A stretch of DNA of 64,000 nt from positions 5,362-69,361 of the forward strand of contig PCAK01000004.1 in NCBI GenBank assembly GCA_002730525.1, written 5' to 3'. Origin of the DNA: Acidobacteriota bacterium (GTDB taxonomy: Bacteria; Acidobacteriota; Vicinamibacteria; Vicinamibacterales; UBA823). Below are positions 4,275 to 47,109 of the stretch, one piece after another. The translations under genes and the position numbers were made by a program. The notes beneath the pieces were generated by a model. The model was not told the DNA's origin. It searched no databases and saw only the letters and a program-made list of their open reading frames with translations. How positions within the stretch are numbered: the first letter of the stretch is position 1; every line of letters starts with the position of its first letter.

Positions 4275-4415
4275 CGGCCCTGGCCGCGGCTGTCGTCGCG
4301 GAGCCGGATCCCGTCGACGTGGTTCACCACGAAGTCCTGGATGAAGGCGTAGCAGGCTCAAGGGCAACCTCCGGGGCTCTGTAACATCCGCGGCAAGAAT
4401 TCCGTCTCTCCAAAT

Positions 4416-10554: not shown

Positions 10555-10574
10555 CCCACGCTGGGCTTAGCCCC

Positions 10575-10871: not shown

Positions 10872-10988
10872 CTACCGACGTCTGAACTCGCTCTCGGACA
10901 CTTGGCCTCTTTTTCCCCTCCGGCCGGACGTTCTGAACGACAATCGGCGTCGAGCTGCAACGCGTCCACCCGCGTTGCGTAGTACCTG

Positions 10989-11753: not shown

Positions 11754-11808
11754 CAGTGCTGGCCCCGCTGCGTAGAACAGGGTGAAGGGTATAAAGAGAG
11801 GACCCACG

Positions 11809-13296
<1,488 letters not shown>

Positions 13297-15734: not shown

Positions 15735-15759
15735 CGTATGCCAACATCGGCCTACATCA

Positions 15760-19039: not shown

Positions 19040-19061
19040 GTCGGGTTCCTTCCGCCGGGGT

Positions 19062-20279: not shown

Positions 20280-20304
20280 CAGGCCTGGTCCAGAGAACGG
20301 TCAG

Positions 20305-20310
20305 ATTATA
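20305..20310 (-). promoter_or_regulatory. Candidate -10 box (TATAAT on the minus strand) for the esterase/oxidoreductase operon
   Basis: Plus-strand attata is the reverse complement of tataat. It lies 25 nt upstream of the ATG at 20279. Confidence 0.35.
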
Positions 20311-20348
20311 GACCCGCGGCAACCCCCCCGCGCCGCGGCGAGAGTAAG

Positions 20349-25211: not shown

Positions 25212-26459
25212 ATGCTGAATCGACGAGGGTTCATTAGCTCCACGGGCGCGCTGCTGGGTGCGACGACGATCTCACCGGCACCAGTCGCGGCTCAGGCGAC
25301 GGTCACCGATCCCTGGGCGCGGACGCCGGCCCCTGACAGCTTCGATCCCTGGGTCGAGGTGATCGCCGACGCGATCCGGAACAACGTCCGCCAACTGAAC
25401 CGGTTCTCCGGCTGCCGGCTGATGGCGGTCATCAAGAACAACGCGAACGGGATCGGCCTGCGCGAGATCGGTCCGATCCTCGACGCGATGGACGAGGTCT
25501 CCGGCCTCGCCGTCGTGCGTGTCGACGAGGCGCTCGCGCTTCGATCGGTCGGCGTTACGAAGCCGATCTTGATGATGGCGCACCTCTCGCCGACCGAGAT
25601 GGAGGAGGTCGTTCGCCACGGCGTCCGGCCGGCGCTCTACCAGGACGATGCCCGGGCCGAGATCGAACGGGTGGCGGCGGCCACATCGAGCCCGGTGCCG
25701 GTTCACGTCATGGTCGATACCGGGATGAACCGGATCGGGATGCCGCACACGCGCGCGCTGCCGTGGCTCGCCGATCTGGCCGCGAGCCCGGCTGTCCGGA
25801 TCGAAGGGACCTTCACAATGTTTTCGGGCGCCCGCCGGGACGACGGGTCGCAGTTCGACCTCGAGCATCTCCGCCGGTTCCAGCGGACGGTCGAGGAGGC
25901 GCGGGCCCAGGGGATCGAACTCGGACTCCTGCACGGCGCGCCGTCGGGGCAGATCGTCCGCGTGCCCGAGACGCACGAGCTGGACCTGATCCGGCCCGGC
26001 GGCGCGATCTACGGCCTGGATGGCTATCGCCGGGACGCATCGGGCGCCGACATCATGGACATTCGGCCGACCTTCCGTTTGCGGGCCCGCCTCACACGGG
26101 TCGAGCGGATCCCGACAGGTGAAGGTGTCAGTTTCGGGCATCAATTCATTGCCGAGCGGCCGACCTGGGTCGCGACAATTCCGATCGGCCATACCGACGG
26201 CTACCCGCGCGACGCTGCCGGCAACTGCGCCGCGCTCGTCGGCGACCGGGTCTATCCGGTCGTCGCCGTCATCAGCTCGAACCATACGATCATCGAGGTC
26301 GGATCCGACCAGACCGTGCAGGTCGGCGACATTGCGACGCTCGTCGGGCCCGACCATCCCGACGTGACGCCGATCTCGGTCGCGACCAAGACAAGCCTCG
26401 GGCGTGACTACTGGATCATGACGAAGCTCAACGCGCTGCTGCATCGGCGGGTCGTCTAG
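25212..26459 (+). CDS. Alanine-racemase-family PLP enzyme with twin-arginine signal
   Basis: MLNRRGFISSTGALLGATTISPAPVAAQ (Tat-like). AVIKNNANGIG corresponds to the PLP-lysine motif (vvKanAYGhG). HVMVDTGMNRIG, then C-terminal IGHTDGYPR and YPVVAVISSNHTIIEV. Confidence 0.75.
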   Translation: MLNRRGFISSTGALLGATTISPAPVAAQATVTDPWARTPAPDSFDPWVEVIADAIRNNVRQLNRFSGCRLMAVIKNNANGIGLREIGPILDAMDEVSGLAVVRVDEALALRSVGVTKPILMMAHLSPTEMEEVVRHGVRPALYQDDARAEIERVAAATSSPVPVHVMVDTGMNRIGMPHTRALPWLADLAASPAVRIEGTFTMFSGARRDDGSQFDLEHLRRFQRTVEEARAQGIELGLLHGAPSGQIVRVPETHELDLIRPGGAIYGLDGYRRDASGADIMDIRPTFRLRARLTRVERIPTGEGVSFGHQFIAERPTWVATIPIGHTDGYPRDAAGNCAALVGDRVYPVVAVISSNHTIIEVGSDQTVQVGDIATLVGPDHPDVTPISVATKTSLGRDYWIMTKLNALLHRRVV

Positions 26460-29812: not shown

Positions 29813-31216
29813 GTGTGGGTCCGACGCTGCGTACCGGCCGTTGCCGCGACGCTTGCGCTTTCCTCAGGCGCCGCATCGGTGTCCGTTCAGGCCCCTGATC
29901 AGGCCCGGCCTCAGTTCTCGCGCGACACCGTCACGCTGACGATCCCTCAGGTCGACTACGAGCCGGCGATCTACTACCGCGACGGTGATCCGTACCCGCA
30001 TCTCGATCTCCGGCGGGTCGACCGCCAACGGATCGTGCAGAAGGATCACGCGGCCGTCGTCCTCGAGAACCGCTACGTCCGACTCACGCTGCTGCCGGCG
30101 ATGGGGCGGGTCTACTCGTTCGTCTACAAGCCGACCGGCCACGAGACGCTCTGGCACAACGACATTGCGACCGTCGGTGGCGCCGCCAACGACACCGGAT
30201 GGTGGCTCTGGATCGGCGGTATCGAGTACACGCTGCCGGGTGACGAGCACGGCACGACCTGGGCGTTGCCGTGGGATTGGGAGATTGCCGAGGATTCCGG
30301 CCGGCGGAAGGCGGTTCGGATGCGGGTGCGCGAACCGGGCACCGGCCTCGCGGAGACGATAGAGATCGCACTCCGACCGGATCGGGCGTTCTTCGAGACG
30401 ACGATCGGGATCACGAACCCGACGGACGAGACGATCGAGTACGCCCACTGGGTCAACCCGCAGTGGGCGCCGGGCGGTCAGAACGAACTGACCGACGGCA
30501 CCGAGTTCATCATTCCGACCGAACGGATTCTCATCGAGGGGCGGTGGCAGGCGAATCTCGGACCGAGTCCCCAGGACTGGGCGACGAGCCCGCTCCGGTT
30601 CATCGACGGCTGGTCGGCGATGGGCGACCTGATGGCCGATGGTCTCGCGCATGGCTTCTACAGCGCGTATTCGCACGACGCCGGCGAAGGGATCGTTCGG
30701 GTGTTCGACCCGGAGGTGACGCCCGGCGTCGACGTCTGGACCTACGGCCACCGGCCGACCGGGATCCCGATGGGCTCGAGCGCGCCGAACGCCGGCTACG
30801 CCGAGATGTGGGGTGGCACCAGCCGGACGTATCCCGATGAGCGACGGCCGCTGTCGCCGGGTGAAGCGATCGAATGGACCGAATGGATGTACCCGTACCA
30901 TGGGACCGGCGGCCTGACCTTCGCGAATCGTGACCTCGCCGTCACGCTCCGCGTATCGGCCGACACCGGTCGCGCGACGATTGCGCTCTGTCCGTCAGGT
31001 GCGTGGCGGGGAACGGTCGAACTCCTGGGCGGAGGCTCAGGCGCGGCCGGCGCCCCGCAACAGCGCTGGGAACTGTCGATCGACCCGACGACGCCATTCC
31101 TTGAACTGGTCGATTTGGCCGAGTTCGACGCGTTGACCCCGGCCGACCTGCGGCTGCGCGTCGGCTCCGACCGCGAGGGGTGGATGGAAATCCTGGCCGA
31201 GCCCGACCCGCGCTAG
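29813..31216 (+). CDS. Secreted protein, DUF5107-like / mutarotase-fold carbohydrate-binding protein (tentative)
   Basis: ORF 29447..31216. The in-frame GTG 29813 precedes signal peptide VPAVAATLALSSGAASVSVQA. VVLENRYVRLTLLPAMGRVYSFVYKPTGHE...WWLWIGGIEYTLPGDEHG is reminiscent of DUF5107/aldose-epimerase-like proteins. The 5' part of the ORF is a shadow of the upstream gene. Confidence 0.5.
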   Translation: MWVRRCVPAVAATLALSSGAASVSVQAPDQARPQFSRDTVTLTIPQVDYEPAIYYRDGDPYPHLDLRRVDRQRIVQKDHAAVVLENRYVRLTLLPAMGRVYSFVYKPTGHETLWHNDIATVGGAANDTGWWLWIGGIEYTLPGDEHGTTWALPWDWEIAEDSGRRKAVRMRVREPGTGLAETIEIALRPDRAFFETTIGITNPTDETIEYAHWVNPQWAPGGQNELTDGTEFIIPTERILIEGRWQANLGPSPQDWATSPLRFIDGWSAMGDLMADGLAHGFYSAYSHDAGEGIVRVFDPEVTPGVDVWTYGHRPTGIPMGSSAPNAGYAEMWGGTSRTYPDERRPLSPGEAIEWTEWMYPYHGTGGLTFANRDLAVTLRVSADTGRATIALCPSGAWRGTVELLGGGSGAAGAPQQRWELSIDPTTPFLELVDLAEFDALTPADLRLRVGSDREGWMEILAEPDPR

Positions 31217-32535
31217 TTTCCGCCTTCGCCGATGGCGTACAGGCTGTTATAGCCGCGCAGGTAGATCGTGTCGCCGACGAGCGCCGGCGAGGCGTCGAAG
31301 CCGTCGGCAAGCGTATTGGCGGCGAGCACCTCGTAGGTCCCGCCGTGGCGGATGACGAGCGTCGTGCCGTCGCGTCCTGGGAGGTAGACACGCCCCGCCG
31401 CGCCCACCGGTGAGGCGAAGATGTTCGGGACCTCGGGCAGCCGCTGCAACTGGTAGTGGGGTGTGCCGGTCCTGGCGTCGAAGACCGACAGGAGCCCGTT
31501 GTTCCGCTTCAGGAAGTAGAGGTGGTCTTCGTACAGAAGCGGCGACGGAACGTAGGGCGTATCACGGTCGAACGCCCAGACGATCGCATCGGTGCCGGTG
31601 ATGTCGCCCTTGGCCAGCGACAGATCGACCGCCTTCAGGTCGTTCCCGCGGTAGCCGGCCATGATGATGACCAGCCCATCGGCGGCGACCGGCGACGGGA
31701 TCGGGTTCATCGTCATGCCGTCGGCGTACCAGACGACGTCACCGTTCTCCAGGTCGTAGCTGAACAGCTGATCGCGGCCGCTCACGATGATCTGGGCGCC
31801 GCCGCCGTGTTCGACGATGAGCGGCGTCGCCCAGGAGTCAATTTCGTCGCGGTTCGTCCGCCAGACCTCTTCGCCGGTGGCGGCGTCGAGCGCGGCGACG
31901 AACGACTGACCCTGATGGTCCCAGACGACGACGAGCCGGTCGCCGTGCAACGCCGGCGTCGTGCCCTCACCGAACTGGTTCCGCATCGTCTTGTCGCCGA
32001 AGTCGTTCTCCCAGACGAGCGCGCCATCCATGGTGTAGGCGTAGAGGCCCTCGGACTCGAACGATGCGAACACCAGTTCTCCGTTCGTGACGGCTGAACT
32101 CGATGCCCAGCTGCCGTTCTCACCGTGCGTCGCCTCGTGCGGCGTATTCTCGCGGGCGGTTCGCTCCCAGATGATGCTGCCGTCGTGGCGATCGATCGCC
32201 ATCACCATGAACTGGTGAAGGTCACGCGGGCTGTACCCACCGCGGGGTTCGTGCGCGGCGTCGTCGGCGACGTTGGTGGGCACGGCGGTCAGGAGGAAGA
32301 GCTGGTCGCCCCAGATGACGGGCGAGCCCGAGCCGCGGCCGGGCACCTCGATCTTCCATCTGATGTTCTCGGTCTCGCTCCACTCGAGCGGCGGCGTGGC
32401 GTCGGCCGACGCTCCGGTTGCCGTCGGCCCGCGCCACTGCGGCCAGTGGGCCTCGCCGGACTGCGCCGCGGCGGGGGCGGCCCAGGCCGTAACGATGACA
32501 AGAACCAGGAGCCACAGGAGCGGTCGTCGGGTCAC
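31213..32535 (-). CDS. PQQ-like (BamB-type) beta-propeller repeat protein, secreted
   Basis: ORF 31213..33117. Start moved to GTG 32535 (SD ggagga, signal peptide LLWLLVLVIVTAWAAPAAAQ). HWPQWRGPTATGAS...SGSPVIWGDQLFLL and repeated DG..VW blades. The stop overlaps the convergent gene's stop. Confidence 0.75.
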   Translation of the reverse strand: MTRRPLLWLLVLVIVTAWAAPAAAQSGEAHWPQWRGPTATGASADATPPLEWSETENIRWKIEVPGRGSGSPVIWGDQLFLLTAVPTNVADDAAHEPRGGYSPRDLHQFMVMAIDRHDGSIIWERTARENTPHEATHGENGSWASSSAVTNGELVFASFESEGLYAYTMDGALVWENDFGDKTMRNQFGEGTTPALHGDRLVVVWDHQGQSFVAALDAATGEEVWRTNRDEIDSWATPLIVEHGGGAQIIVSGRDQLFSYDLENGDVVWYADGMTMNPIPSPVAADGLVIIMAGYRGNDLKAVDLSLAKGDITGTDAIVWAFDRDTPYVPSPLLYEDHLYFLKRNNGLLSVFDARTGTPHYQLQRLPEVPNIFASPVGAAGRVYLPGRDGTTLVIRHGGTYEVLAANTLADGFDASPALVGDTIYLRGYNSLYAIGEGGN

Positions 32536-32633
32536 GGATCGTTCCTCCAAGTGTTCGTCGTGTCGAACATCATGACGATGCCGGGCTCGGGGCCGTTTCA
32601 GGCCTTGGTTGCCCCAACGACGGCATGGTGACG

Positions 32634-34946
32634 TCACCGTCCTGCAATCGTACCCAGCTCGTACTCCTTCGGCGGTTCGGCGCCGAGCAGGTGCTCCACA
32701 AAGTAGTCCCAGCGCCGCCGCATCCAGTACGGCTCGCGGCCGAAGCCGTGGCCGCGGTTCGGGAACATGACCAGATCGAAGTCCTTGTTGGCCGCGATCA
32801 ACGCGTCGACGACCAGCAGCGTGTTCGACGGCGGCACGTTGCTGTCCATCGTGCCGTGCGCCAGCAGCAGCTTCCCCTTCAGGTTCTCGGCAAGCAGCTG
32901 GTTCGCCTGGTTGTCGTAGTTCGTCGTGCCATCGGGGTCCGTTTCGAGAAGTCCCTGCCACTTCTCGGCCCAGTCGTCCTCGTAGTTCCGGTTGTCGTGG
33001 TTGCCGGCGCCAGAGACCGCGACCTTGTAGAAGTCGGGATAGCGGAGGATGGCGTCGGTCGAAGCGAAGCCGCCGCCCGAGTGTCCCCAGATGCCGACCC
33101 GGTCGAGGTCCATCCATGGATGCCGCCCCGCCAGTTCCTGGATCATCGCGATCTGATCGGGCAGCCCGTTGTCGCCCATGTTCCCGTAGTAGACGTCGTG
33201 GAACGACTTCGACCGCCCCGGCGTGCCCATCGCGTCGACCTCGACGACGATGAACCCGAGCTCGGCGATCGCCTGCTTATCCGCGCGGGCCGGCCGGAAC
33301 GCGCGGCTGCCGACGCTGCCGCCCTGTGGGCCCGGATAGAGGTAGTTGAGCACCGGGTAGGAGCGTGACTGGTCGAGAACAGACGGCTGATACATCAGGC
33401 CGTGGAGATCGGTCACGCCGTCGCGCGCAGTGACGGTGAACGGAATCGGCGCTTGCCAGCCATGCGCCTCGAGGCGTGAGATGTCGGTCTCCTCGAGTGT
33501 CATGACCGAGTTGCCATCGGCCCGGCGCAGGACCGCGGCGCCAGGCGTCGCCGGCGTCGAGTAGTTGTCGACGAAATAGTCGCCCGACGCCGACAGCGTG
33601 ACGGCGTGGTGCGCCGGCTCGGGTGTCAGCAGCTCCAGGTCCGAACCGTCCATGCCGATCCGGTACAGGTAGTGGAAGTAGGGATCGCCCGGCTCCCGCC
33701 CGGCTGCCGTGAAGTACAGCATCCGGTTAGGCTTGTCGATCCGCCGCAGCTGGAGCACCGTCCAGTCGCCAGACGTGATCCGGTGCTTCAGCTCGCCGCG
33801 CTCGAGGTCGTACAAGTAAAGGTGGCCCCAGTTGTCCCGTTCCGAGAACCAGATCGCCTCGTTCGACTCTGGCAGGACGTGCCAGTTGACCCGGCCCTGG
33901 CCCGACTCGAAGTAGGTCTCCGCCGTCTCGCTCATCACCTCGCGCACCTCGCCGGCCACGGCGTCGGCCAGGCGGAGTGTCGCCTGCTTGTGATCGCGCG
34001 AGGACGACACGAACGCGAGCAACGACGAGTCGTCACTCCACTCGACGTCCAGCCACTGACCGCCGCGAGTCGCGACGTGGTCGGAAATCGTCGAGCGGTG
34101 CGGGTCGGGCGCCATCAGCAGGTCCACGACACGCGCATCGTCGACGTGGGCGACGATGCGGCGCATCGTGAAGATGTGGTCGTCGCCGGCCAGCGGGTAC
34201 TTCCAAGCCTCTAACTCCGAGTGTCCGACCTCGGTCGACACCAGGTACATCTCGCCGACGTTGCGGCCGTCGTGCTGAAAGGTCGCGATCTTCTCGGAAT
34301 CGGGCGACCAGAGCAGAACGGGCTGGTCGCTGCGGACCCACCCCGCGTTGTTGGTCGCGTAGCCGTAGTGCTCGGCGCCGTCGGCCGTGAGCTGGGTCTC
34401 GTCACCCGTCGGCAGGTCGCGTACCCACAGGTTGTAATCGCGAATGAAGGCGGCGCGCCGGCCGTCGGGTGAGACGATGGCGTTTCGCGCCGCCGCGACT
34501 TCCTCGCGCAGTACCCGGCTACAGACGTGGCTCTCGATGACGCAGGTGTACTGGCGTCCGCGTGAGCCGAAGGTGATCGAGGCCCCGTCGTCGGCGAAGC
34601 GGCCCTGCGCGGGCAGGTCGAATGCGTCGAAACTCTGGTCGTTTCCGGTCGCGGCGCCGAGCGCGTCGGCCAGCCGCTCGTGGTCGAAGGCGCGCGCCCG
34701 GGTTCCGTCGGCCGGGTCGGCGATCACGAACTCACGGCCCTCGGGAATCCGGTTCTGGTAGGCGAGTCGATCGCCGTCGAGCCATGTAGCGCTCGTGATG
34801 ACGCCCGTCACCAGCGGGTCGGTCTGGCCGCCCAGAAACCGCTCGGCCCGGGCGTAATCGTCGGCGGTCACGACCGGCTGCGCGAGCGTCGAAGCCGGTA
34901 GCAACACGGGCAGTACGAACAGCAACGAGAGTGTGTAGCGCATCAA
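32634..34946 (-). CDS. Dipeptidyl-peptidase IV-type S9 serine peptidase, secreted
   Basis: Signal peptide MMRYTLSLLFVLPVLLPASTLAQ. DPP-IV N-terminal propeller followed by WGHSGGGF (Ser), GTMDSNV (Asp) and NRGHGF (His). Confidence 0.85.
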   Translation of the reverse strand: MMRYTLSLLFVLPVLLPASTLAQPVVTADDYARAERFLGGQTDPLVTGVITSATWLDGDRLAYQNRIPEGREFVIADPADGTRARAFDHERLADALGAATGNDQSFDAFDLPAQGRFADDGASITFGSRGRQYTCVIESHVCSRVLREEVAAARNAIVSPDGRRAAFIRDYNLWVRDLPTGDETQLTADGAEHYGYATNNAGWVRSDQPVLLWSPDSEKIATFQHDGRNVGEMYLVSTEVGHSELEAWKYPLAGDDHIFTMRRIVAHVDDARVVDLLMAPDPHRSTISDHVATRGGQWLDVEWSDDSSLLAFVSSSRDHKQATLRLADAVAGEVREVMSETAETYFESGQGRVNWHVLPESNEAIWFSERDNWGHLYLYDLERGELKHRITSGDWTVLQLRRIDKPNRMLYFTAAGREPGDPYFHYLYRIGMDGSDLELLTPEPAHHAVTLSASGDYFVDNYSTPATPGAAVLRRADGNSVMTLEETDISRLEAHGWQAPIPFTVTARDGVTDLHGLMYQPSVLDQSRSYPVLNYLYPGPQGGSVGSRAFRPARADKQAIAELGFIVVEVDAMGTPGRSKSFHDVYYGNMGDNGLPDQIAMIQELAGRHPWMDLDRVGIWGHSGGGFASTDAILRYPDFYKVAVSGAGNHDNRNYEDDWAEKWQGLLETDPDGTTNYDNQANQLLAENLKGKLLLAHGTMDSNVPPSNTLLVVDALIAANKDFDLVMFPNRGHGFGREPYWMRRRWDYFVEHLLGAEPPKEYELGTIAGR

Positions 34947-35052: not shown

Positions 35053-37398
35053 TCACATCGATGAGAGGATTCTCACGGTGTCGGCGGCGGCTTCGGTCGG
35101 GTCGAGGGCGGTGTCGGCTATGCCGGAGACGACTTTCGTCAGGTTGTGATCGGTGAGCCCGGGGGTGGCCCAGGTCGTTGTCGGAGCGCGGGTGATGTAG
35201 ACGGAGAAGGCGTGGTGGCCGGAGCCTGGACGTTCACCGACGATGTGGAGGATTGACCGCTTGAATCCGCCAGCTCCCGAACCTCCGAAGAGCAATTCGC
35301 CGATTCGGTAGCCGGCGCGGACGCGGCCGGCGGTGACGACGATGTGCTCGGGCGCGAGGTTGAAACCGGCCTTGCCAAGCTCGGGGCGAAGCACCCTCAG
35401 AAAAGGCTGCAGGTGTCCCTCGTCGATCAACGCATAGGCGTTGAGACCGTCCGAAATCACGATCTGCGCATCGTAACGATCGTCCCGGTTCGCCGCCAGC
35501 CGACGAATCGCTCGTTCTGACGATGGACGGAGCGTCTCGCCGGTGGGAGGGTGCAGGATGTAGTCTCTGCGGCTCTCCGACGTCGTGGCCACCTCGAGAC
35601 TCGGCTTCACACCTGAGGCGAAATCCGTGGGCAATTCGGCCCAGATCGATTCCTTCGAGTCCCGATAGAGGTGCCGAATCTGACGATCGAGCTCGGAATC
35701 CAGCTGCCAGACCTCTCGGCCGTGGCTCTCGGCGATGAAGACTCCGCGGCTCCGAACGTCCTCGATGTGACGCCGACCTTCAACGAGGATCTCCGCCGCC
35801 GGGCGCCGGTCCCCTCTTCGCTGTCGGTATTTCATGTAGACCCACGCGGGCTGGCCGAAGTGCCGAGTCGGGTGCCCGTCGGTGTCGATGACCTCGAGGT
35901 CCTTGAAGAAGCGCCACATCGCGTCGTCGACCTTGTAGCCAAGCTTCTCGCGGATGCGGACATGATCCTGGAAGCCGGTCGTCAGGTAGCTCAACATCGG
36001 GTCGTTCTTCGTCGGAAGCGCCATCAGATAGGCCGGATTGGCCGGCAGGATCCGGTCGATGCACCAGTTGAGGTCGTCCAAGTCGACGTCCATGTGCAGG
36101 GTTGAACAGATGTCGAGCCCGATCGTCAGGCCGTGGAGCTTGCCCGCAACGGTGTCTTCAAGGCAGCAGCGGACCAGCTGTTCGCGCGTCCGGAAAATCT
36201 CCGGTCCGATGAAGCCCGCAACGTCATTGACGTGGACCCACGGCGCCGGCGGCCTATCCGCATCTTGCTGCGCCTCCGCCACACGCGCTTTCAGGGCGCG
36301 CGCGAAACCGTACTTGCGGGCCTCGTGGATCACCATGTCGAAGCCCTTGCCGTGTCCGTTCGTGGCGTCGGCACCCTGACCGGTCTCGAAGTAGAGTCCG
36401 TACTTGCCGGTTCGGCTGGCGGCGTGATCTACCATCTTTTGAACGGTGAGATCGAACGTCGTGTTGGCGTCCGCGACTCCCTCCAGACTCTGAAACCAGA
36501 TTCCAGTCGTTCCGGGAGCGCGGCGTTCGACTTCGGCCTGGACGTCGATGTGCGACAGGACGCACTGGGGAAGCATCTCTTCCAGTCCGAAGGTGTCGAG
36601 AATCTCTGCCAGCGTATTTTCGATCGCTGCTACCGACTCGATCTCACTCGAGACGGGGTTGGTCCCCAGGACGACGTCGCCGACCGCGTACGCCCACCCG
36701 TTGAACACCTGCCATCGGATGTCGTCCACGTTGTCGGTCGGCGAATTCGGCTGGATCCTCGCGCCCATGTAGCCTCTGGCGCCGATCTTCGAGCCGGGCA
36801 GGGGATTGAACACCTTGCGGCCGATCCGGATCAGCTCGTCGTTAGTCATCAGCTTGACTACACAGCCAATGATGTCGCTGGGTAGACCCGGCATGATCTT
36901 CTGGATCTCGTCTTCGCTGCTGCTGAGCAAGAACTTCTTCAGCTCGTCAACGGTCCAGCCACTGAGCGTCTCGGTGACCGTCCGGTCGACCGACTCTTCG
37001 ATGAACGAGTACAGTTCATCTTCAAAAACGGGGTTGTCGATCAGGTCGCCGATTCGAGTGTTCCCAAGGAGCTCCCGCGCCCGCGTGCGCGTTTCTTCGT
37101 CGCGTGCCGCAACGCCTATGGCCTGATCACCTTCTTTGAACTCGTTTGCGGTGCCCAGCAGCTGTCGATAGAACGTTGCGTCGAATTGCCCCCTGTTCTG
37201 CGAAATATGTGAGAAAAGGTCCTGACCGCGGGTTGCCATCCTGGCTGCGGAGGCATGCCCGGATCGGGAGAAGGCTCCGCTGAAGGTCCAGGAGGCGGCT
37301 GCGAGAAGGCCCGAGAGGAACGACCGACGAGGGAGGGCGTGACGTTGAGTCAGTGCGTCTGCCGCATTGCTTGGAGCAGTTCGTCTGGCCTGTGTCAT
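35053..37398 (-). CDS. eutBC: Ethanolamine ammonia-lyase, EutB and EutC fused in one polypeptide, with N-terminal twin-arginine-like extension
   Basis: EutB-like: GDQAIGVAARDEETRTRA, LYFETGQGADATNG, VAGFIGPEIF, GKLHGLTIGLDICSTLH. EutC-like tail: AQIVISDGLNAYA, HIVGERPGSGHH. N-terminus: ALPRRSFLSGLLAAASWTFSGAFSRSGHASAA. Confidence 0.85.
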   Translation of the reverse strand: MTQARRTAPSNAADALTQRHALPRRSFLSGLLAAASWTFSGAFSRSGHASAARMATRGQDLFSHISQNRGQFDATFYRQLLGTANEFKEGDQAIGVAARDEETRTRARELLGNTRIGDLIDNPVFEDELYSFIEESVDRTVTETLSGWTVDELKKFLLSSSEDEIQKIMPGLPSDIIGCVVKLMTNDELIRIGRKVFNPLPGSKIGARGYMGARIQPNSPTDNVDDIRWQVFNGWAYAVGDVVLGTNPVSSEIESVAAIENTLAEILDTFGLEEMLPQCVLSHIDVQAEVERRAPGTTGIWFQSLEGVADANTTFDLTVQKMVDHAASRTGKYGLYFETGQGADATNGHGKGFDMVIHEARKYGFARALKARVAEAQQDADRPPAPWVHVNDVAGFIGPEIFRTREQLVRCCLEDTVAGKLHGLTIGLDICSTLHMDVDLDDLNWCIDRILPANPAYLMALPTKNDPMLSYLTTGFQDHVRIREKLGYKVDDAMWRFFKDLEVIDTDGHPTRHFGQPAWVYMKYRQRRGDRRPAAEILVEGRRHIEDVRSRGVFIAESHGREVWQLDSELDRQIRHLYRDSKESIWAELPTDFASGVKPSLEVATTSESRRDYILHPPTGETLRPSSERAIRRLAANRDDRYDAQIVISDGLNAYALIDEGHLQPFLRVLRPELGKAGFNLAPEHIVVTAGRVRAGYRIGELLFGGSGAGGFKRSILHIVGERPGSGHHAFSVYITRAPTTTWATPGLTDHNLTKVVSGIADTALDPTEAAADTVRILSSM

Positions 37399-37406
37399 CC
37401 CGATGA

Positions 37407-37425
37407 GCCCCTGAGATTCAGGGGC
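37407..37425 (-). promoter_or_regulatory. 7-bp GC hairpin overlapping the putative SD of eutBC
   Basis: gcccctg / caggggc with a 5-nt loop, ending 8 nt before the ATG at 37398. The only SD-like purine run (agggg) lies in one arm. Confidence 0.25.
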
Positions 37426-37479: not shown

Positions 37480-38469
37480 TCATCGAGCCTGCAGTTCGGC
37501 TGGCATCGTTTCCCGCACGGCGGTCATGATTCTGGATATCGACGGCAGGTAGTGTTTCTCGAGTCTCGCCAGCGGCATCACGGTGTCGTAGCCGGTCACG
37601 CGCCGCACCGGCGCGCGCAGCACGCCGTCGTGCTCGGCCAGCCGCGCGGCGATCTCCCCGCCGAGGCCGCCCGAGAGCGCCGCCTCGTGGACGATCACGG
37701 CGCGGCCCGTCTTGCTCACCGACGCCACGATCGTCTCCATGTCGATCGGCTTCAGCGTCGCCACGTCGATGACTTCCGCCTCGATCCCCTCCGAGGCCAG
37801 CATGCCCGCCGCGGTCGTCGTCTCGACGAGCATCGCCCCCCAGGTGATGAGCGTCACGTCGCCGCCCTCGCGCACGCGGAAGCAGGTGTCGAGTGGGAGC
37901 GCCGTGCCGTCGTCGACAACCTCTTCATGCCCGGCACGGTAGATCCGTTTCGGTTCGAGAAAGACCACCGGATCCGGATCGCGGATCGCCGCCAGCAGCA
38001 GGCCGTAGGCGCGCGCCGGCGACGACGGGATCACGACGCGCAGACCGGGGATGTGCGCCAGCATCGCTTCGGTGCTCTCCGAATGATGCTCGAGGGCGTG
38101 AATGCCGCCGCTGTAGGGTGCTCGCAGCACCAGCGGGCAGGTGAGCCGGCCGCGCGTTCGTGTCCGCAGGCGCGCCGCATGGTTCACGAGCTGGTCGATC
38201 GTCGCGTACAGGAACCCCAGGAACTGGATCTCCGCGACGGGTCACATCCCCTGCGCGGCGAGGCCGACCGAAACCCCTGCGATGCCCGCTTCGGCGATCG
38301 GCGTGTCGAGCACCCGATCAGGCCCGAACCGGTGGATCAGGCCGTCGGTCACGCGGAACACGCCGCCGTCGACGCCCACGTCCTCGCCGAGGACGATGAC
38401 GCGCTCGTCCTCCGTCATGGCTCGCGCCAGCGCGGCGTTGATCGCATCGACCAGTCTCATCTCAGCCAT
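37480..38469 (-). pseudogene. 2-oxoacid dehydrogenase E1 beta subunit with an in-frame TGA
   Basis: ORFs 38242..38469 and 37480..38187 are in one frame. The sequence reads ...GLAAQGM-TGA-PVAEIQFLGFLYATIDQL... where homologues have G-x-R-PVAEIQF. The total of 329 codons is normal for E1 beta. Confidence 0.7.
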
Positions 38470-39424
38470 GATGGTGCCCCCGTACGACCTGATCGCGCTG
38501 CCACGCCAGCGGCGCGGGCAGCGTTTCGTAGAGGTAGTCGAAGACCGTCTCGGCCGGCGCCGGCTCCATGGCGAGGTAAGCCTCGGCGGCTTGCTCGATC
38601 TGGGCGGCGCACTCGTCGGCCAGCCGCCGCTCGTCGTCCTCCGACCAGACGTCCTGAGCGGTGAGGTAGGCTCGGAGCCGGGCGATCGGTTCGTGTTTCC
38701 ACGCCTCGGCGACGGCGGCCTCGTCGCGGTAGCGCTTGGCGCTGTCGGCCGTCGTGTGGTTCGAGAGCCGATAGGTCAGCGCCTCCACGACGTGCGGACC
38801 GCCGCCGGTTCGGGCCACGCGCAGTGCTTCGCCGACGATCTGGCGCACCGCGATGACATCGTTGCCGTCGACCTGCTCGCCGGGGATGCCCGCGGCGATC
38901 GCTTTCTGGGCCAGCGTCTGCGCGGCGGTCTGCGCGGCCCGGGGCACGGAGATCGCCCACTGGTTGTTGGCGATGACGAAGACGACCGGCACGCGCCAGT
39001 TGCCGACCGCCTGCGGCGCCTGGCTGCCGATCGGGACGGAGTTCGGAAGATCTTCTCGCGGCACGGCGAAGTCGCTGCCGCGCTCGTCACCGCCCCAGTA
39101 GAGGAACATTTCGGTCGGCGTGACGCCGCGCCAGAGCTGAGCGCCGTGCTCCCGGAACGCCGGCAGCAGGACGTCTTCGGCCGCCATCGCCGCGGCCAGA
39201 CCGACCGACACCGCTTCTTGCCCGAGCGACGACGGATAGGTGCCGAGGCGGCTGCTGCGCTGCAGTGCGATCGCCTTCGTGTCGAACGTCCGGGTCAACA
39301 CCATCGCGCGATACAACTCGCGCAGCGTCTTCCCGTCATGCGCGAACTCTGGCAACGGTTGCACCGGCCGGCCGGAGGAATCGAGAAATTGATGGTGGGT
39401 CACTTCGAAGGCGGCAGCCTGCAT
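38462..39424 (-). CDS. 2-oxoacid dehydrogenase E1 alpha subunit lacking the thiamine-diphosphate-binding GDG...NN segment
   Basis: ORF 38462..39616. ATG 39424 preferred (SD ggaggagg). YRAMVLTRTFD and LGQEAVSVG are present, but the sequence goes SQAPQAVGNWRVPVVFVIANNQWAIS, with 4 residues where homologues have ~40 including GDGatSEG. 8-nt overlap with E1 beta. Confidence 0.65.
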   Translation of the reverse strand: MQAAAFEVTHHQFLDSSGRPVQPLPEFAHDGKTLRELYRAMVLTRTFDTKAIALQRSSRLGTYPSSLGQEAVSVGLAAAMAAEDVLLPAFREHGAQLWRGVTPTEMFLYWGGDERGSDFAVPREDLPNSVPIGSQAPQAVGNWRVPVVFVIANNQWAISVPRAAQTAAQTLAQKAIAAGIPGEQVDGNDVIAVRQIVGEALRVARTGGGPHVVEALTYRLSNHTTADSAKRYRDEAAVAEAWKHEPIARLRAYLTAQDVWSEDDERRLADECAAQIEQAAEAYLAMEPAPAETVFDYLYETLPAPLAWQRDQVVRGHHHG

Positions 39425-39597
39425 TTGCGCCCCTCCTCCCGGGGCCCCCTGCGGGCCCCGTCCTGCAAGAGGACACTGCAAGAAGACTGCCGGGCCTCCG
39501 CCGACAAGGTCGACAGGAGCCCCATGAAACAGGGCTGATTCAGCTGCCTGGCCGTGCCGGCCACCGGCGGCCTGGAGGCGTTGGGGATTTTTCCTAC

Positions 39598-39603
39598 TAT
39601 AAT
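39598..39603 (+). promoter_or_regulatory. Candidate -10 box (TATAAT) 11 nt upstream of ATG 39615 (short or absent leader)
   Basis: ctactataattcccgcctctcATG. No SD-like sequence between the box and the start codon. Confidence 0.4.
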
Positions 39604-39614
39604 TCCCGCCTCTC

Positions 39615-40607
39615 ATGTTTCCGAGACGCCGCTTCGCCGCCGCGCTCGTTCCTCTGCTGGTCCTGGCCGCCGCCGGCTGCGCGGCGCCTGCCGACCCGCC
39701 TCAGGCGGTCACAGACGCACCGGTCACCGAGGTAGAGTCCGACTCGGTCGGGGCGGCCATGACGACCGGCCTGGTCAGTTCGACTTTCGCCTGCGACTCG
39801 GTCGCGAGCTGCTCGGGCGCGTCGCGCTTCAACGAGGCGTTGTGCGGCACCATAGATGATCCGTCCGGACGGACCTGGACGATCCCCGCCGAGGTGAACA
39901 CCTCAGGCGCGACCTGCGTCGATATCTACAACGACTGCACCGGCGACGGCGACAACCCTGACTACCTCGCCCAGCTCTCGACCGTCGTCGTCGATGGGGA
40001 AGGCGCCGAGATCACCGCAACGCTGTTTGGCGATAACTTCTTCGAGCTGTATGTGAACGGCCAGTACGTCTGCCGCGATGCGATCGGCTTCACGCCGTTC
40101 AATTCGAGCGCGAGCCGGTTCCAGGCGGCCTATCCGATCACCTATGCGGTCCGGTTGATCGACTGGGGGACGCACCTCGGCATCGGGATGGAGTACGACA
40201 GCTACAACGTTGGCGACGGCGGGTTCATCGCGCGCTTCAGTGACGGTGCGGTCACCGGCGCGGATTGGCGGTGTCAGGTCTTCTATGCCGCGCCGGTGGA
40301 TGATGTGAATTGCGTCGGCGCGAATCGTGACACGAGCGCGTGTCCGCGAGAGCCGGAGTGCGTGGGAGATCCGGAAAGTTGCAGCGCCCTGCACTGGGCC
40401 GTGCCCGACGACTGGGCGGCACCGGGCTTCGACGACACCGACTGGCCGGCGGTCTCCCTGTACGCGGCCGACGACGTGACGCGGACGCCGGGCTACGCGA
40501 ACTATGCCGAGCTGTTCGGCGAGGCCGAGTTCATCTGGACGAAGAATCTGAACATCGACAATCAGGTGCTCTGTCGCGTCACGATCGACGCGCCGGCATC
40601 GCCGTAA
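39615..40607 (+). CDS. Cys-rich hypothetical lipoprotein
   Basis: MFPRRRFAAALVPLLVLAAAGCAAPADPPQ lipobox. About 20 Cys residues and no CxxCH. The ending FIWTKNLNIDNQVLCRVTI suggests a jelly-roll/lectin-like fold. 25 nt upstream of the PQQ dehydrogenase gene. Confidence 0.55.
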   Translation: MFPRRRFAAALVPLLVLAAAGCAAPADPPQAVTDAPVTEVESDSVGAAMTTGLVSSTFACDSVASCSGASRFNEALCGTIDDPSGRTWTIPAEVNTSGATCVDIYNDCTGDGDNPDYLAQLSTVVVDGEGAEITATLFGDNFFELYVNGQYVCRDAIGFTPFNSSASRFQAAYPITYAVRLIDWGTHLGIGMEYDSYNVGDGGFIARFSDGAVTGADWRCQVFYAAPVDDVNCVGANRDTSACPREPECVGDPESCSALHWAVPDDWAAPGFDDTDWPAVSLYAADDVTRTPGYANYAELFGEAEFIWTKNLNIDNQVLCRVTIDAPASP

Positions 40608-40632: not shown

Positions 40633-42636
40633 GTGGGTCAGCAACCGCTTCGAGGCATCGTCGTTCTCGTTCTCGGCCTGCTCGTCTGTGCTCATGCCGC
40701 ACCGCTCGGCGCCCAGGAGACGCTTCCGGATACCGAGTGGACGACCTACGGCGGCGACCTCGCGAGCACGCGCTACTCGCCGCTCGATCAGATCACCGCA
40801 GAGAATTTCGGCGAACTGCAGCTGGCGTGGACGCTCCAGGGTGACAGCTTTGGGCCGCGGCCCGAGACGAACTTCCAGTCGACGCCGCTCATGGTCGACG
40901 GCGTCGTCTACACGACGGTCGGCTCACGCCGGGCCGCGGCCGCGCTCGATGCCGAGAGCGGCGAACTGCTCTGGATGCACCGGATGGACGAGGGCGAGCG
41001 GGGCGAAGTGGCGCCCCGGCGACTCTCCGGCCGCGGCCTCACCTACTGGGACGACGGCGGCACGGGCCGGATCTTCTACGTGACGCCGGGCTACCACATG
41101 ATCGCAATCGACGCCGCGACCGGTCGCCAGATCCCGAACTTCGGTCTGGACGGCATCGTCGATCTGAAGCGGGAACTCGACCAGGAGGTCGATCCGTTAA
41201 CCGGCGAGATCGGCCTCCACGCCGCCCCGATCGTCGCCGGTGACACGATCATCATCGGCGCCGCGCACGTCGTGGGGTCGGCGCCGGTCAGCCGTGAGAA
41301 CGTGAAGGGCTACGTCCGGGGTTACGACGTTCGAACCGGCGAGCGGAAGTGGATCTTCCACACGTTGCCGCAGCTCGGCGAGTTCGGCAACGAGACCTGG
41401 CTGAACGATTCGTGGCGCTACACCGGCAATACGGGCATGTGGGGCCAGGCGACGGTCGACGTCGAACTGGGACTGGCCTACCTGCCGCTTGAGATGCCGA
41501 CCGGCGACTACTACGGCGGCCACCGGCTGGGCGACAATCTCTTCGGCGACGCCATCGTCGCGGTCGACCTCGAGACCGGCGAGCGGGTCTGGCACTACCA
41601 GACGGTGCACCACGACGTCTGGGACTTCGACCTGCCGTGCGCGCCGGTCCTCGCCGACATCACCGTCGACGGCCGCGCGATCAAGGCGATCGTCCAGCCG
41701 ACGAAGCAGGGCTGGCTCTTCGTCCTCGACCGGGCGACGGGCGAACCGGTCTGGCCGATCGAGGAACGGGCGGTCCCGGGGTCTGATATTCCGGGCGAGG
41801 TCCTGGCGCCGACGCAGCCCTACCCGACGAAACCCCCGGCGTTCGACCGCCAGGGGATTGGGACCGACGATCTGATCGATTTCACCCCGGCGCTCCGCGC
41901 CGAGGCGCTGGAGGTGGTGGGGAAATTCCGCATCGGACCGATCTACACGCCGCCCTCGGTCGCGACGGCCGACGGCACCTACGGTACGTTGATGGTGCCG
42001 TCAGCGACCGGCGGACCGAACTGGCCGGGCGGCGCGCTCGACCCCGAGACGGGCATCTTCTACATCTATTCGAAGACCCAGGTAACCAGGCTCGGGCTCG
42101 TCAACGACCCCGAACGCTCCGACATGGACTTCGTCATGGGACGTCCAGAGGGTGTGAACGCCGCGATGGCGGGGACATCGGTGCAGGGGCTGCCGCTGGT
42201 GAAGCCGCCGTGGGGGCGGATCACGGCGATCGATCTCAATGAGGGCGAGATCGTCTGGCAGGTGGCGCACGGCGAGACGGCCGACAACGTGCGGGATCAC
42301 CCGGCGCTTCAGAACCTCGAGATCCCGCGGACAGGTCGTCCGGGCCGCATCGGTACGCTGGTGACCAAGACGCTGGTCATCGCCGGCGATGGCGGGAGGT
42401 TCACCGACAGCGAGGGCGTCGAAGGCGCCCGGCTCCGGGCCTACGACAAGGCGACCGGGCGTGAAGTGGCGTCGGTTTTCATACCGTCGAACCAGACCGG
42501 CTCGCCGATGACCTATGCGATTGGCGGCGTGCAGTACCTCCTCGTCGCCGTCGGCGGCGGCGGCTACGCCGGTGAGCTGCTCGCGTTCCGGCTGCCCGAG
42601 TCGGTGACCGAGGAGTACCAGCCCGTCGCGCCCTGA
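40633..42636 (+). CDS. PQQ-dependent dehydrogenase, glucose/quinate-dehydrogenase-like soluble form (paralog of 20349..22427)
   Basis: GTG start with SD aggag. Signal peptide. EWTTYGGDLASTRYSPLDQI, HHDVWDFD, ATGGPNWPGG, GRITAIDLNEGEIVW. Collinear with the 20349 protein. Confidence 0.8.
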   Translation: MGQQPLRGIVVLVLGLLVCAHAAPLGAQETLPDTEWTTYGGDLASTRYSPLDQITAENFGELQLAWTLQGDSFGPRPETNFQSTPLMVDGVVYTTVGSRRAAAALDAESGELLWMHRMDEGERGEVAPRRLSGRGLTYWDDGGTGRIFYVTPGYHMIAIDAATGRQIPNFGLDGIVDLKRELDQEVDPLTGEIGLHAAPIVAGDTIIIGAAHVVGSAPVSRENVKGYVRGYDVRTGERKWIFHTLPQLGEFGNETWLNDSWRYTGNTGMWGQATVDVELGLAYLPLEMPTGDYYGGHRLGDNLFGDAIVAVDLETGERVWHYQTVHHDVWDFDLPCAPVLADITVDGRAIKAIVQPTKQGWLFVLDRATGEPVWPIEERAVPGSDIPGEVLAPTQPYPTKPPAFDRQGIGTDDLIDFTPALRAEALEVVGKFRIGPIYTPPSVATADGTYGTLMVPSATGGPNWPGGALDPETGIFYIYSKTQVTRLGLVNDPERSDMDFVMGRPEGVNAAMAGTSVQGLPLVKPPWGRITAIDLNEGEIVWQVAHGETADNVRDHPALQNLEIPRTGRPGRIGTLVTKTLVIAGDGGRFTDSEGVEGARLRAYDKATGREVASVFIPSNQTGSPMTYAIGGVQYLLVAVGGGGYAGELLAFRLPESVTEEYQPVAP

Positions 42637-45636: not shown

Positions 45637-47109
45637 CTAGCGCCGCCGGGCGAGCGAGATCCGTCCCTGGAGGTCGCTGCCACCCGTCGCGATCATCCAG
45701 GAGTTCGCCTTCGGGACGACGAACGACTCGCGGACGAAGCCGCGATTGCGGACCTGTCGCACCTCCCACTCGAGCCGGTCGGCGTAGACGCGGAAGACGC
45801 GGTACGAGTTCGGCCACTCGACCACGGCGGCGTTCTGGATGTGGTGAATCCCCTGGAGGTCGTTCACCTCGTCCCAGTGGTCGTGACCGTTCAACGTCGC
45901 GACGACGTTGGGCGCGGCGCGCACGATGTCGAGCACCGCCTCACGGCCGAGCACGCTCCAGTCGTGCAGCCGGAAGCCGCACGACGAGAGGCCACCGCGA
46001 TTGAACGGCGCGTAGTGCCAAACGACGATCGTGGGCGTCTGGCGATCGGCCATCAGCGTGTCGCGGAGCCAGGCGCGCTGGTCGTCGCGCGCCTCGGGTT
46101 CTTCGATCTTCACGTCCAGCACGACGAAGCGCAGCGGCGGCTTCGGCAGGGCGTAGCTGAGGCTGCCGCCGGGGAAGAGATCCCCCAGCAGCTCCCGCGC
46201 ATCGGGCCGCGAACTCTCGAGGTACACATCGTGGTTGCCCATGCAGCCGTAGACCGGGAGCGGCTGCGAGCCGACGATCCCCGCGAACAGCGCGAACTCG
46301 TCCCGCGTCGCATTCTCGGTCATGTCGCCGCCGTGCATCACGAAGTCGATCCCCTCGCGGGCGAGCGCCCAAAGCGTCGCGCCGAATTCGGCCGTGACCG
46401 CCTCGCCCATCTTGAGGTTCATCCAGAGATGTCTCCCTTCGAACCGGACGTGGGTGTCGCCGATGAGCGCGAAGCGGTAGCGCGGGGCCTCGACGGGATC
46501 GGGGAGCGGGCTGAGCCGCAGGGCGCGGAACCGTCCCGCGTCGCGGAAGTGCGGGCCGGCGATCGTCAGCCGGTGGAGCCCGCCGGGCAGCAGCCAGCGA
46601 TCCACCGAAATGGTGTCCGGTGGCCTCGTACCCAGCACCTGCGGGGCCGGGTCGTTGATCTCGGCGATGCCCCACGACGGCGCGGCCACCATCGGCGCGG
46701 CGATCACCGTGTCGTCGCACAGCACCGTCGCGCGCAGGCCGGGTCGGAGGTCGTCCGACGGCTCGAGATCCAGTTCGGCTGATAGATAGACGGGCTCGTC
46801 GGCTTCGACGGTGAACGTCAACAGGCCGTCCGGAGCGATCGGCTGGGCGGTCCCGCCGGGCTCCTCGACGTCGAGCCGCGCCAGGTCGAGCGCGTAGGCG
46901 CCGTCCGGCGCGGTCAAGGTTAGCGTCCCGCGCCGTGGCATAGGGCGCGCCCGCTGGTCGGCCAGCGCGTGCAGCTGGGGCGCGAGCAGGGGATACGCCT
47001 CGAGCGCCGACGTCCCCTGGAGGCCGAAGGCCGATCGGGCGATCGACAGCGAGGCGCCGGCGGCGCTCATCGCCCTCAGGAAGTCACGCCGTGAGCGGGG
47101 TTGAGGCAT
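45637..47109 (-). CDS. Tat-exported metallophosphoesterase (calcineurin-like) with N-terminal extra domain
   Basis: MPQPRSRRDFLRAMSAAGASLSIARSAFG twin-arginine signal. IGDTHV, HGGDMTE, GNHD and NGHDHW metal-ligand motifs. Confidence 0.75.
   Translation of the reverse strand: MPQPRSRRDFLRAMSAAGASLSIARSAFGLQGTSALEAYPLLAPQLHALADQRARPMPRRGTLTLTAPDGAYALDLARLDVEEPGGTAQPIAPDGLLTFTVEADEPVYLSAELDLEPSDDLRPGLRATVLCDDTVIAAPMVAAPSWGIAEINDPAPQVLGTRPPDTISVDRWLLPGGLHRLTIAGPHFRDAGRFRALRLSPLPDPVEAPRYRFALIGDTHVRFEGRHLWMNLKMGEAVTAEFGATLWALAREGIDFVMHGGDMTENATRDEFALFAGIVGSQPLPVYGCMGNHDVYLESSRPDARELLGDLFPGGSLSYALPKPPLRFVVLDVKIEEPEARDDQRAWLRDTLMADRQTPTIVVWHYAPFNRGGLSSCGFRLHDWSVLGREAVLDIVRAAPNVVATLNGHDHWDEVNDLQGIHHIQNAAVVEWPNSYRVFRVYADRLEWEVRQVRNRGFVRESFVVPKANSWMIATGGSDLQGRISLARRR

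Follow-up and report, generated by a model that had tools for sequence, protein, structure and literature searches.

A solitary, single-chain ethanolamine ammonia-lyase with a predicted Tat-type export signal, conserved across several bacterial phyla

Ethanolamine ammonia-lyase (EAL), as described in E. coli, Salmonella and Listeria (structures 3ABO and 2QEZ), consists of two polypeptides, EutB and EutC. This canonical enzyme stays in the cytoplasm, or in a microcompartment to which an encapsulation peptide at the N-terminus of EutC directs it, and its operon also holds eutA, eutT, eutH and shell genes (PMC5821096). A 2018 review treats EAL catabolism as intracellular, the long eut loci containing the acetaldehyde within the microcompartment (PMC5821096). 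Here we analyse a 64-kb stretch of an Acidobacteriota genome (contig PCAK01000004.1, hereafter the window), in which one open reading frame (ORF) of 781 amino acids (aa) encodes both subunits. Unlike its canonical counterparts, the window enzyme is a single chain, its gene is solitary, and it begins with a predicted export signal. We favour the reading of a cofactor-loaded, periplasmic EAL exported through twin-arginine translocation (Tat), to which we give a probability of about 0.6.

Fusion of the two subunits has been met before. Pelobacter carbinolicus has fused EutBC proteins (Pcar_0491 and Pcar_0467) and no eutA in its genome (PMC3543383), and several relatives found here (P0141, P0153, P0206, P0210) are also fused. 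The preliminary description of the window, according to which EAL is normally encoded as separate eutB and eutC genes alongside a reactivase, transporter or shell genes, was therefore too strong. However, the Pelobacter genes belong to a cluster of 43 genes that also encodes cobalamin biosynthesis and putative uptake proteins, and no signal peptide was reported for them (PMC3543383); the fused relatives just named begin at the EutB core and fall outside the signal-bearing clade. EAL without a metabolosome is known as well, from the short eutBC-eat loci of Acinetobacter baumannii and Pseudomonas (PMC9426561, PMC5821096), but there the enzyme is unfused and cytoplasmic, and its genes sit with those of an ethanolamine permease, a regulator and an aldehyde dehydrogenase. 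A precedent for Tat export of a corrinoid enzyme is offered by the reductive dehalogenases RdhA/PceA, which acquire their cofactor in the cytoplasm, cross the membrane in folded form and work on its outer face (PMC10624902). These differ in having an unrelated fold and two iron-sulfur clusters, and in catalysing reductive dehalogenation with no adenosyl radical. They also have a signal-binding chaperone, PceT, and an anchor, RdhB, whereas no such partners are conserved beside the EutBC gene. No paper on an exported EAL (twin-arginine, lipoprotein or secretome) was found in the openly searchable literature. The EutB-EutC fusion is thus already known, while an export signal on an EAL appears undescribed; enzyme, fusion and export pathway are each known, and it is their combination here that appears not to have been reported before.

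The ORF is exactly as first described, with an ATG start and its stop codon at 35053-35055, and the motifs quoted for it are all present in the translation. An identical protein stands in NCBI as MBU21574.1, "ethanolamine ammonia-lyase [Acidobacteria bacterium]". Pfam finds EutB (PF06751, 457 bits, E 6e-137) and EutC (PF05985, 103.9 bits for a cut-off of 25.8, E 1e-29) in the same chain, so that the fusion stands, but the limits initially given to EutB, approximately 60-520, become 77-512, and those of EutC become 579-780. With the NCBIfam models, EutB (NF011649) scores 599 bits, above the subfamily cut-off of 554, and EutC (NF003971) scores 76.7 bits, far under the equivalog cut-off of 230. 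Searched against known structures, the EutB part aligns with Listeria 2QEZ at E 3e-69 and with chain A of E. coli 3ABO at E 1e-65, and the EutC part with chain B of 3ANY at E 1e-7. Identity to the canonical enzyme is about 30% for EutB and about 25% for EutC.

Residues R160, Q162, N193, E287 and D362 of E. coli EutB, which in the E. coli structures bind ethanolamine or act in catalysis, align with R214, Q216, N247, E338 and D429 of the window protein; for R160, the title of Sun et al. 2008, cited in PMC10440813, supports such a role. All five are invariant in an alignment of 77 family members, as are the EutC motifs SDGL (649-652) and GERPG (721-725). In the segment between the two domains, F514, G515, D530, R532, L577 and Y578 are invariant or nearly so. 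An AlphaFold2 model of the 781-aa chain built on this alignment has a mean pLDDT (predicted local distance difference test) of 85.3 and a pTM (predicted template-modelling score) of 0.85. Matched chain by chain with Foldseek, its EutB and EutC parts align to 3abo_A (TM 0.88, E 2e-28) and 3abo_D (TM 0.71, E 1e-10), respectively. The linker forms helices at 517-527, 534-550 and 568-585, with pLDDT mostly above 89, so that the connection does not look floppy. Both folds, the five substrate-binding residues and the two EutC motifs are shared with the canonical enzymes. Everything in the sequence and the model points to an intact, catalytically competent single-chain EAL, and the chemistry is presumably the same, with adenosylcobalamin (AdoCbl) radical deamination turning ethanolamine into acetaldehyde and ammonia.

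It could be that the protein, although exported by Tat, acts on some other vicinal amino alcohol, or is mainly a periplasmic corrinoid-binding protein. The EutC part is divergent, as its NCBIfam score indicates, the second shell departs from E. coli at some positions (for example CSTLH here, CYTNH there), and the clade has an insertion near residues 372-387. Besides, no ethanolamine-specific context, such as a transporter, a regulator or an aldehyde dehydrogenase, is conserved around the gene. We nevertheless consider this possibility unlikely, as the invariance of the five ethanolamine-binding residues argues for an ethanolamine-like substrate, and the EutB part scores above its subfamily cut-off.

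The first 51 residues of the protein read MTQARRTAPSNAADALTQRHALP-RR-SFL-SGLLAAASWTFSGAFS-R-SGHASA/A, the slash marking the predicted cleavage site, and the n-region runs ...ALP into the arginine pair. Tat substrates carry the consensus S/T-R-R-x-F-L-K close to the N-terminus, and P-R-R-S-F-L-S is found here at residues 23-29. It leads into a Ser/Gly-rich h-region of 17 residues, followed by a c-region with a basic residue, R44, and the cleavage motif A49-S-A51/A. In these rule-based checks, which involve no trained predictor, the h-region hydropathy, the basic c-region and the peptidase site are likewise those of a Tat substrate. Cysteine is absent from residues 1-60, hence no lipobox of the form L-[AS]-[GA]-C in the window protein itself. 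The AlphaFold model gives residues 1-25 and 30-51 a pLDDT under 50 and shows a lone helix, 24-38, detached from the fold. Hydropathy, taken as the maximal 12-residue Kyte-Doolittle mean, is 1.33 for the h-region of the window protein and 1.61 +/- 0.31 for the family. The seven Sec-type signals of the window range from 2.37 to 3.37 and its three other Tat-type signals from 1.23 to 2.04, so that the EutBC h-region resembles the Tat-type signals and not the Sec ones. All in all, we regard the N-terminus as very likely an export signal, and as likely a Tat signal specifically.

This N-terminus recurs in orthologues. A database search gave more than 100 fused relatives of 730-830 aa and 60-72% identity, from Acidobacteriota, Myxococcota and Planctomycetota. 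The preliminary description had proposed a survey of homologues for the co-occurrence of fusion and RR motif, and the two do occur together: RR-x-F-[LMV] followed by an uncharged stretch is present in 106 of 121 database sequences (the window protein and 120 relatives), and several of the 15 relatives without it are gene calls that visibly start within the signal. In an N-terminal alignment of 15 diverse sequences, R24 and R25 are the sole invariant columns. To be independent of gene callers, the longest ORF was also read off raw DNA at 85 loci, comprising 80 fetched from a one-genome-per-species collection, where at least 529 genomic stretches encode relatives, together with earlier loci and the window. 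The motif is present at 75 of them, 41-71 residues (median 63) ahead of the conserved LLGAANEFKEGD core. Signal-bearing loci come from Acidobacteriota, Myxococcota, Planctomycetota, Bacteroidota and others, with at least five phyla for the close relatives, and their carriers live in soil, sediment and marine habitats. Carriers in culture include Archangium, Vitiosangium, Polyangium, Echinicola, Algoriphagus and Mangrovimonas. Since it recurs in 75 of 85 loci from several phyla, such a signal-like N-terminus goes far beyond chance.

The search pattern holds the RR, F and L positions only loosely. Of the 75 loci with the motif, 61 have RR at the twin position, 9 have RK, and a few have RQ or KK; 65 have F at +2, and 51 have L at +3. 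Many Bacteroidota orthologues (L045, L052, L057, L058, L078, L082, L084) have S/N-R-K-E-F-L, with RK for RR, and L070 has R-Q. A lipobox-like cysteine is found in 53 of the 106 motif-bearing database relatives; under a stricter motif filter, it closes the h-region at 23 of 62 loci (the window's included), of which 20 are from Myxococcota or Bacteroidota. By eye, a Pro-rich tether often follows this cysteine, as in the Myxococcota example ...LALASC-REDPKPPPPPPGVYVP... Lipobox and tether together make the pattern of a Tat- or Sec-exported lipoprotein, for which a cytoplasmic location of the protein offers no explanation.

The gene stands alone. As the preliminary description had stated, other eut genes are missing from the window: Pfam detected no EutA, EutH/Eat-type neighbour, shell protein or B12 gene among its approximately 40 ORFs, and no linked eutA, eutT, eutH/eat, eutE/D or shell gene lies within the 64 kb. 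Rfam, at the gathering threshold, gave no cobalamin riboswitch or other RNA in the window; no sigma-70-like promoter was found near the gene, and terminator-like sites around it are at chance level. When all ORFs of the 85 loci were clustered, the gene and overlapping frames aside, no neighbour family recurred in more than 7. Four annotated neighbourhoods share no eut genes and have nothing in common. Queried by tblastn against the other loci, the window's pyrroloquinoline quinone (PQQ)-dependent alcohol dehydrogenase (PQQ-ADH), S9 peptidase, propeller, SNF symporter and 330-aa ORF found essentially the sister strain only. The suggestion that the aldehyde product is handed to neighbouring quinoproteins gains no comparative support from these counts, a PQQ-ADH homologue being near the gene at only 1 of the 84 other loci.

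From the above we infer Tat dependence, signal cleavage, cofactor loading before export, the substrate and a physiological role, as follows. The 781-aa chain would fold in the cytoplasm, the EutB barrel and EutC domain closing around AdoCbl with the linker holding both, and the Tat system would export the folded, cofactor-loaded protein. AdoCbl is made only in the cytoplasm, and in the canonical enzyme it is seated between EutB and EutC, so that an exporter of folded proteins would be the only route for the holoenzyme to the periplasm; owing to the fusion, one signal could carry both subunits and the cofactor. In the Vicinamibacterales protein, the signal would be cut at ASA/A to leave a soluble periplasmic enzyme of approximately 80 kDa, and in many Myxococcota and Bacteroidota orthologues the lipobox cysteine would tether the enzyme to the membrane instead. 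The periplasmic enzyme would split ethanolamine from phosphatidylethanolamine head groups into ammonium and acetaldehyde, dispensing with ethanolamine transporter, microcompartment and ATP-dependent reactivase altogether. The ammonium would be taken up, and with acetaldehyde arising outside the cytoplasm neither a transporter nor a microcompartment would be needed any longer. Periplasmic release of ethanolamine by a glycerophosphodiester phosphodiesterase is our own suggestion, drawn from the title of a reference listed in PMC5821096. For the proposal in its full form, namely the first AdoCbl radical enzyme outside the cytoplasm, loaded inside, exported folded by Tat, periplasmic or a lipoprotein, free of a reactivase, with the periplasm replacing the microcompartment for acetaldehyde, with ammonium drawn from phospholipid head groups, and with a fusion that lets one signal carry both subunits and the cofactor, we see the chances as evenly balanced.

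Several points weigh against a Tat-exported holoenzyme. The Tat models PF10518 (Pfam TAT_signal) and TIGR01409 give no match on the window N-terminus at E <= 10, and each matches just one of 15 family N-termini (the window protein and 14 relatives). The preliminary description had counted negative Tat predictors against an export signal, and this outcome has come about in part, yet two other proteins of the window, a Gfo/Idh/MocA oxidoreductase and a metallophosphoesterase, which served as controls, do reach about 19 bits with these models. Both models are only 21-29 positions long, and weak matches are dropped by the HMMER filters; these results show that the EutBC signal is less canonical for very short Tat models than those of the two controls. 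Since the motif, composition and conservation tests are positive, we regard this failure as a caveat rather than a refutation. The GC content at third codon positions (GC3) is 0.62 for codons 1-53, at the low end for a gene whose remainder has 0.79 +/- 0.07, a difference that is uninformative alone. No conserved partner genes for a chaperone, B12 handling or aldehyde oxidation were found beside the gene in the loci compared. The canonical enzyme is an alpha6-beta6 complex of about 480 kDa in E. coli, so that either the oligomeric state would differ here, or assembly would follow export. Reactivation of canonical EAL, in which the damaged cofactor is exchanged, is described as requiring EutA, ATP and free AdoCbl (PMC5821096); this would be impossible in the periplasm, and the exported enzyme would therefore be a consumable one of limited life. 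Finally, no paper was found on the localisation or activity of any member of the family.

Part of this evidence would suit export by the Sec or a lipoprotein route, with the arginines as a positively charged n-region and with folding and corrinoid uptake in the periplasm. The Tat models miss the N-terminus, RK, RQ or KK can stand at the twin position, and one relative, P0125 (776 aa), has a strongly hydrophobic N-terminus in place of RR, plainly Sec-like or a membrane anchor. However, RR-x-F-L is kept far past the needs of a Sec n-region, as the counts for RR and for F at +2 demonstrate, and the hydropathy of the h-region is Tat-like, well under that of the window's Sec signals. A basic residue following the h-region is a pattern described as Sec-avoidance, and one is found within 6 residues past it in 56 of the 75 orthologues. 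An apoenzyme exported unfolded by Sec would moreover be without its cofactor, AdoCbl being cytoplasmic. Taken with its points on both sides, the Sec route seems to us quite improbable.

Alternatively, the N-terminus could be an uncleaved membrane anchor, or a peptide unrelated to export such as one for microcompartment encapsulation, the enzyme staying on the cytoplasmic side. The lone helix of the model is in keeping with this, and enteric EutC does bear an N-terminal encapsulation peptide (PMC5821096). Yet an h-region of 17 residues, rich in Ser and Gly, is not hydrophobic enough to make a stable transmembrane helix, and the lipobox cysteine and Pro-rich tether of about 22 orthologues imply processing on the outer face. 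Encapsulation peptides are not known to have an invariant RR, an A-x-A site or a lipobox cysteine. The window has no shell genes, and no neighbour family, counting shell genes, exceeds 7 of the 85 loci. We rejected encapsulation on these grounds, and hold a cytoplasmic-side enzyme to be very unlikely as a whole.

The Tat-exported reading depends on which start codon is used. Within the first 80 codons, only two in-frame start codons are present, ATG1 and the ATG of codon 54, which the preliminary description had correctly located at 37239. The sequence AGGGG sits 9 nucleotides (nt) upstream of ATG1, and nothing comparable precedes ATG54. This Shine-Dalgarno-like sequence, the only one, is held in a hairpin, GCCCCUGA-AUC-UCAGGGGC, with a perfect 8-bp stem, 8 nt upstream of ATG1; on folding of the 91-nt leader, the stem is part of the minimum free energy structure (z = -2.3 versus shuffles). 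A role in translational control is conceivable, as is an operator palindrome, or the hairpin may mean nothing. In most pairs of orthologues, about half of the codon differences in the signal region are synonymous (9:6, 8:5 and 8:8 synonymous to non-synonymous), where random change would give about 1 in 4; the three pairs that involve L007 are mostly non-synonymous (4-6 to 11-14). Such comparisons indicate that the extension is translated and that selection acts on it.

About half of the public calls for the window protein begin at Met54, which cuts off the signal. Records of 781 aa are MBU21574.1 and HAK56718.1; those of 728 aa, without the signal, are HJO38435.1, MDP6371330.1 and others from Vicinamibacterales metagenome-assembled genomes (MAGs; the P0001 cluster, and L085 at 10001-12187). 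The P0001 cluster is present in Tara Oceans data too. P0001 itself is 99% identical and called as 728 aa, and its underlying DNA is identical upstream; with such identity and a mixture of 781- and 728-aa records, the disagreement on the start stems from gene calling, not from biology. A start at Met54 would make an ordinary cytoplasmic fused EAL with 53 untranslated codons and a fortuitous resemblance to Tat signals. It fails as a general explanation and is extremely improbable in spite of the 728-aa annotations and the low GC3, because orthologues from several phyla, at 55-72% identity, keep the upstream peptide at the level of amino acids, codon changes in it are about half synonymous in most pairs (those with L007 excepted), the Shine-Dalgarno-like sequence is at ATG1, and between h-region and core 66 of 75 orthologues have no ATG and 33 have no ATG, GTG or TTG at all. 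Of the two readings that the preliminary description had left side by side, an exported or membrane-tethered B12 lyase is the better supported, by the translated extension, by RR-x-F-L and h-region across phyla, and by the orthologues with a lipobox.

Relatives without the signal bear on its origin. A scan of 1.8 billion representatives yielded 1380 relatives. Distant fused ones of 30-38% identity (the four named above, with P0220, P0221, P0229 and P0251) start at the EutB core without a signal, and unfused relatives (P0152, P0172, P0199) likewise. In a neighbour-joining tree, which carries no support values, the sequences with the signal group in a single clade that spans phyla, with the signal-less distant fused relatives outside; by its topology, the EutB-EutC fusion would therefore be older than the signal, which was probably gained once. 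A signal-less Myxococcota paralogue (L024, L035, L036, L040, L041, L042, L048) is nested within the signal-bearing clade, and this position suggests a secondary loss. In Cystobacterineae (Archangium, Vitiosangium, Myxococcus), this second paralogue, starting MAESLT..., is found as against the signal-bearing L002, L016, L018 and L022. Archangium lansingense, with L002 and L048, carries both forms and offers a natural setting in which a cytoplasmic version can be set against an exported one. A further group of long fused homologues of 40-47% identity, P0123 (1110 aa), P0149 (1246 aa), P0128, P0134 and P0135, has large N-terminal extensions that are of low complexity or C2-like, and looks eukaryotic.

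Table 1. Positions in the window of the EutBC gene, its parts, and the neighbouring features discussed.
Feature	Residues	Position	Strand	Basis
Whole gene, single-chain EutB-EutC EAL precursor	1-781	35053..37398	-	ORF list, Pfam EutB and EutC
Predicted signal peptide (n-region 1-23, RR motif, h-region, c-region to ASA/A)	1-51	37246..37398	-	sequence reading, model, orthologue conservation
Twin-arginine consensus P-R-R-S-F-L-S	23-29	37312..37332	-	invariant R24 and R25
h-region FLSGLLAAASWTFSGAF, weakly hydrophobic	27-43	37270..37320	-	Kyte-Doolittle
c-region SRSGHASA, basic residue and A-x-A cleavage motif	44-51	37246..37269	-	sequence reading
Internal ATG (Met54), start in several public 728-aa calls	54	37237..37239	-	public annotations, sequence
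EutB large-subunit TIM-barrel domain	77-512	35863..37170	-	Pfam, PDB matches, Foldseek, conserved residues
Structured linker between EutB and EutC parts	513-578	35665..35862	-	AlphaFold model, family alignment
EutC small-subunit domain	579-780	35059..35664	-	Pfam, PDB match, Foldseek
8-bp hairpin over AGGGG Shine-Dalgarno-like sequence		37407..37425	-	sequence, folding
E1 alpha and E1 beta of 2-oxoacid dehydrogenase, just upstream of the EutBC gene		37480-39616	-	Pfam
Unannotated 330-aa ORF adjoining PQQ-ADH, twin-arginine and lipoprotein-like start MFPRRRFAAALVPLLVLAAAGC		39615-40607	+	sequence
Strong PQQ dehydrogenases		15622-17574, 19671-22427, 40633-42636	+	Pfam
PQQ_2/BamB-like propeller only		31213-33117	-	Pfam
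Gfo/Idh/MocA oxidoreductase, twin-arginine N-terminus LSRRQFIRTTGG		17639-19096	-	Tat models, about 19 bits
Alanine racemase (pyridoxal phosphate enzyme), Tat-like signal MLNRRGFISSTGALLGATTISPAPVAAQA		25212-26459	+	TAT_signal, 13 bits
Metallophosphoesterase, twin-arginine N-terminus SRRDFLRAMSAAG		45637-47109	-	Tat models, about 19 bits

Some individual neighbours of the gene at other loci were looked at as candidate partners and discarded as too sporadic. A D-serine-dehydratase-like gene (Ala_racemase_N and D-ser_dehydrat) is near it in L002, from Archangium (8685-9788), and in L004, from Bryobacteraceae (3766-4839). The B12 chaperone MeaB is near it in L003, 1.5 kb downstream, where a beta-eliminating lyase/aminotransferase is directly upstream (L003, 6838-7872 and 11831-12787). 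These sporadic neighbours may still be meaningful.

As regards the rest of the window, the two quinoproteins named in the preliminary description fared differently: the one at 40633 is confirmed as a strong PQQ dehydrogenase, whereas that at 31213 is a BamB-like propeller only. Also encoded are exported hydrolases (two sulfatases, two S9 peptidases, a rhamnosidase and a gamma-glutamyltranspeptidase) and a TonB-dependent receptor, and the region looks like a periplasmic scavenging neighbourhood. The Gfo/Idh/MocA oxidoreductase and the metallophosphoesterase belong to families that are typical Tat substrates, and their SRRxF signals suggest that the organism uses the Tat pathway. Its alanine racemase, 100% identical to a protein of a Vicinamibacterales MAG, is by its signal apparently a further cofactor enzyme that is exported. 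Just upstream of the EutBC gene, the two E1 genes look decayed. The Pfam match of E1 alpha is broken into two stretches, and by eye, beside typical E1 alpha sequences, this protein appears to lack the stretch that normally holds the thiamine pyrophosphate-binding motif. The E1 beta ORF has 235 aa only, and its Transket_pyr match starts from profile position 88 of 174. As the same disrupted calls (313 aa, E1_dh and Transket_pyr; 194 aa) are found in the 99%-identical strain L085 (8057-9760), the decay is probably not an assembly error.

A conserved, exported, solitary single-chain EAL implies another logic of ethanolamine use than the intracellular one, with the aldehyde-producing step placed outside the cytoplasm and ethanolamine coming from the breakdown of phospholipids in the periplasm. 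If our reading is true, the list of Tat cargoes gains an AdoCbl radical enzyme, the fusion of EutB with EutC gains a functional reason, and it can be asked, in a testable way, for how long the enzyme lasts when it is not reactivated and what B12 cost the cell bears per exported molecule. The ethanolamine-utilisation potential of metagenomes would then need to be read differently. The signal-bearing EAL is widespread, and these points can be tested in cultured species.

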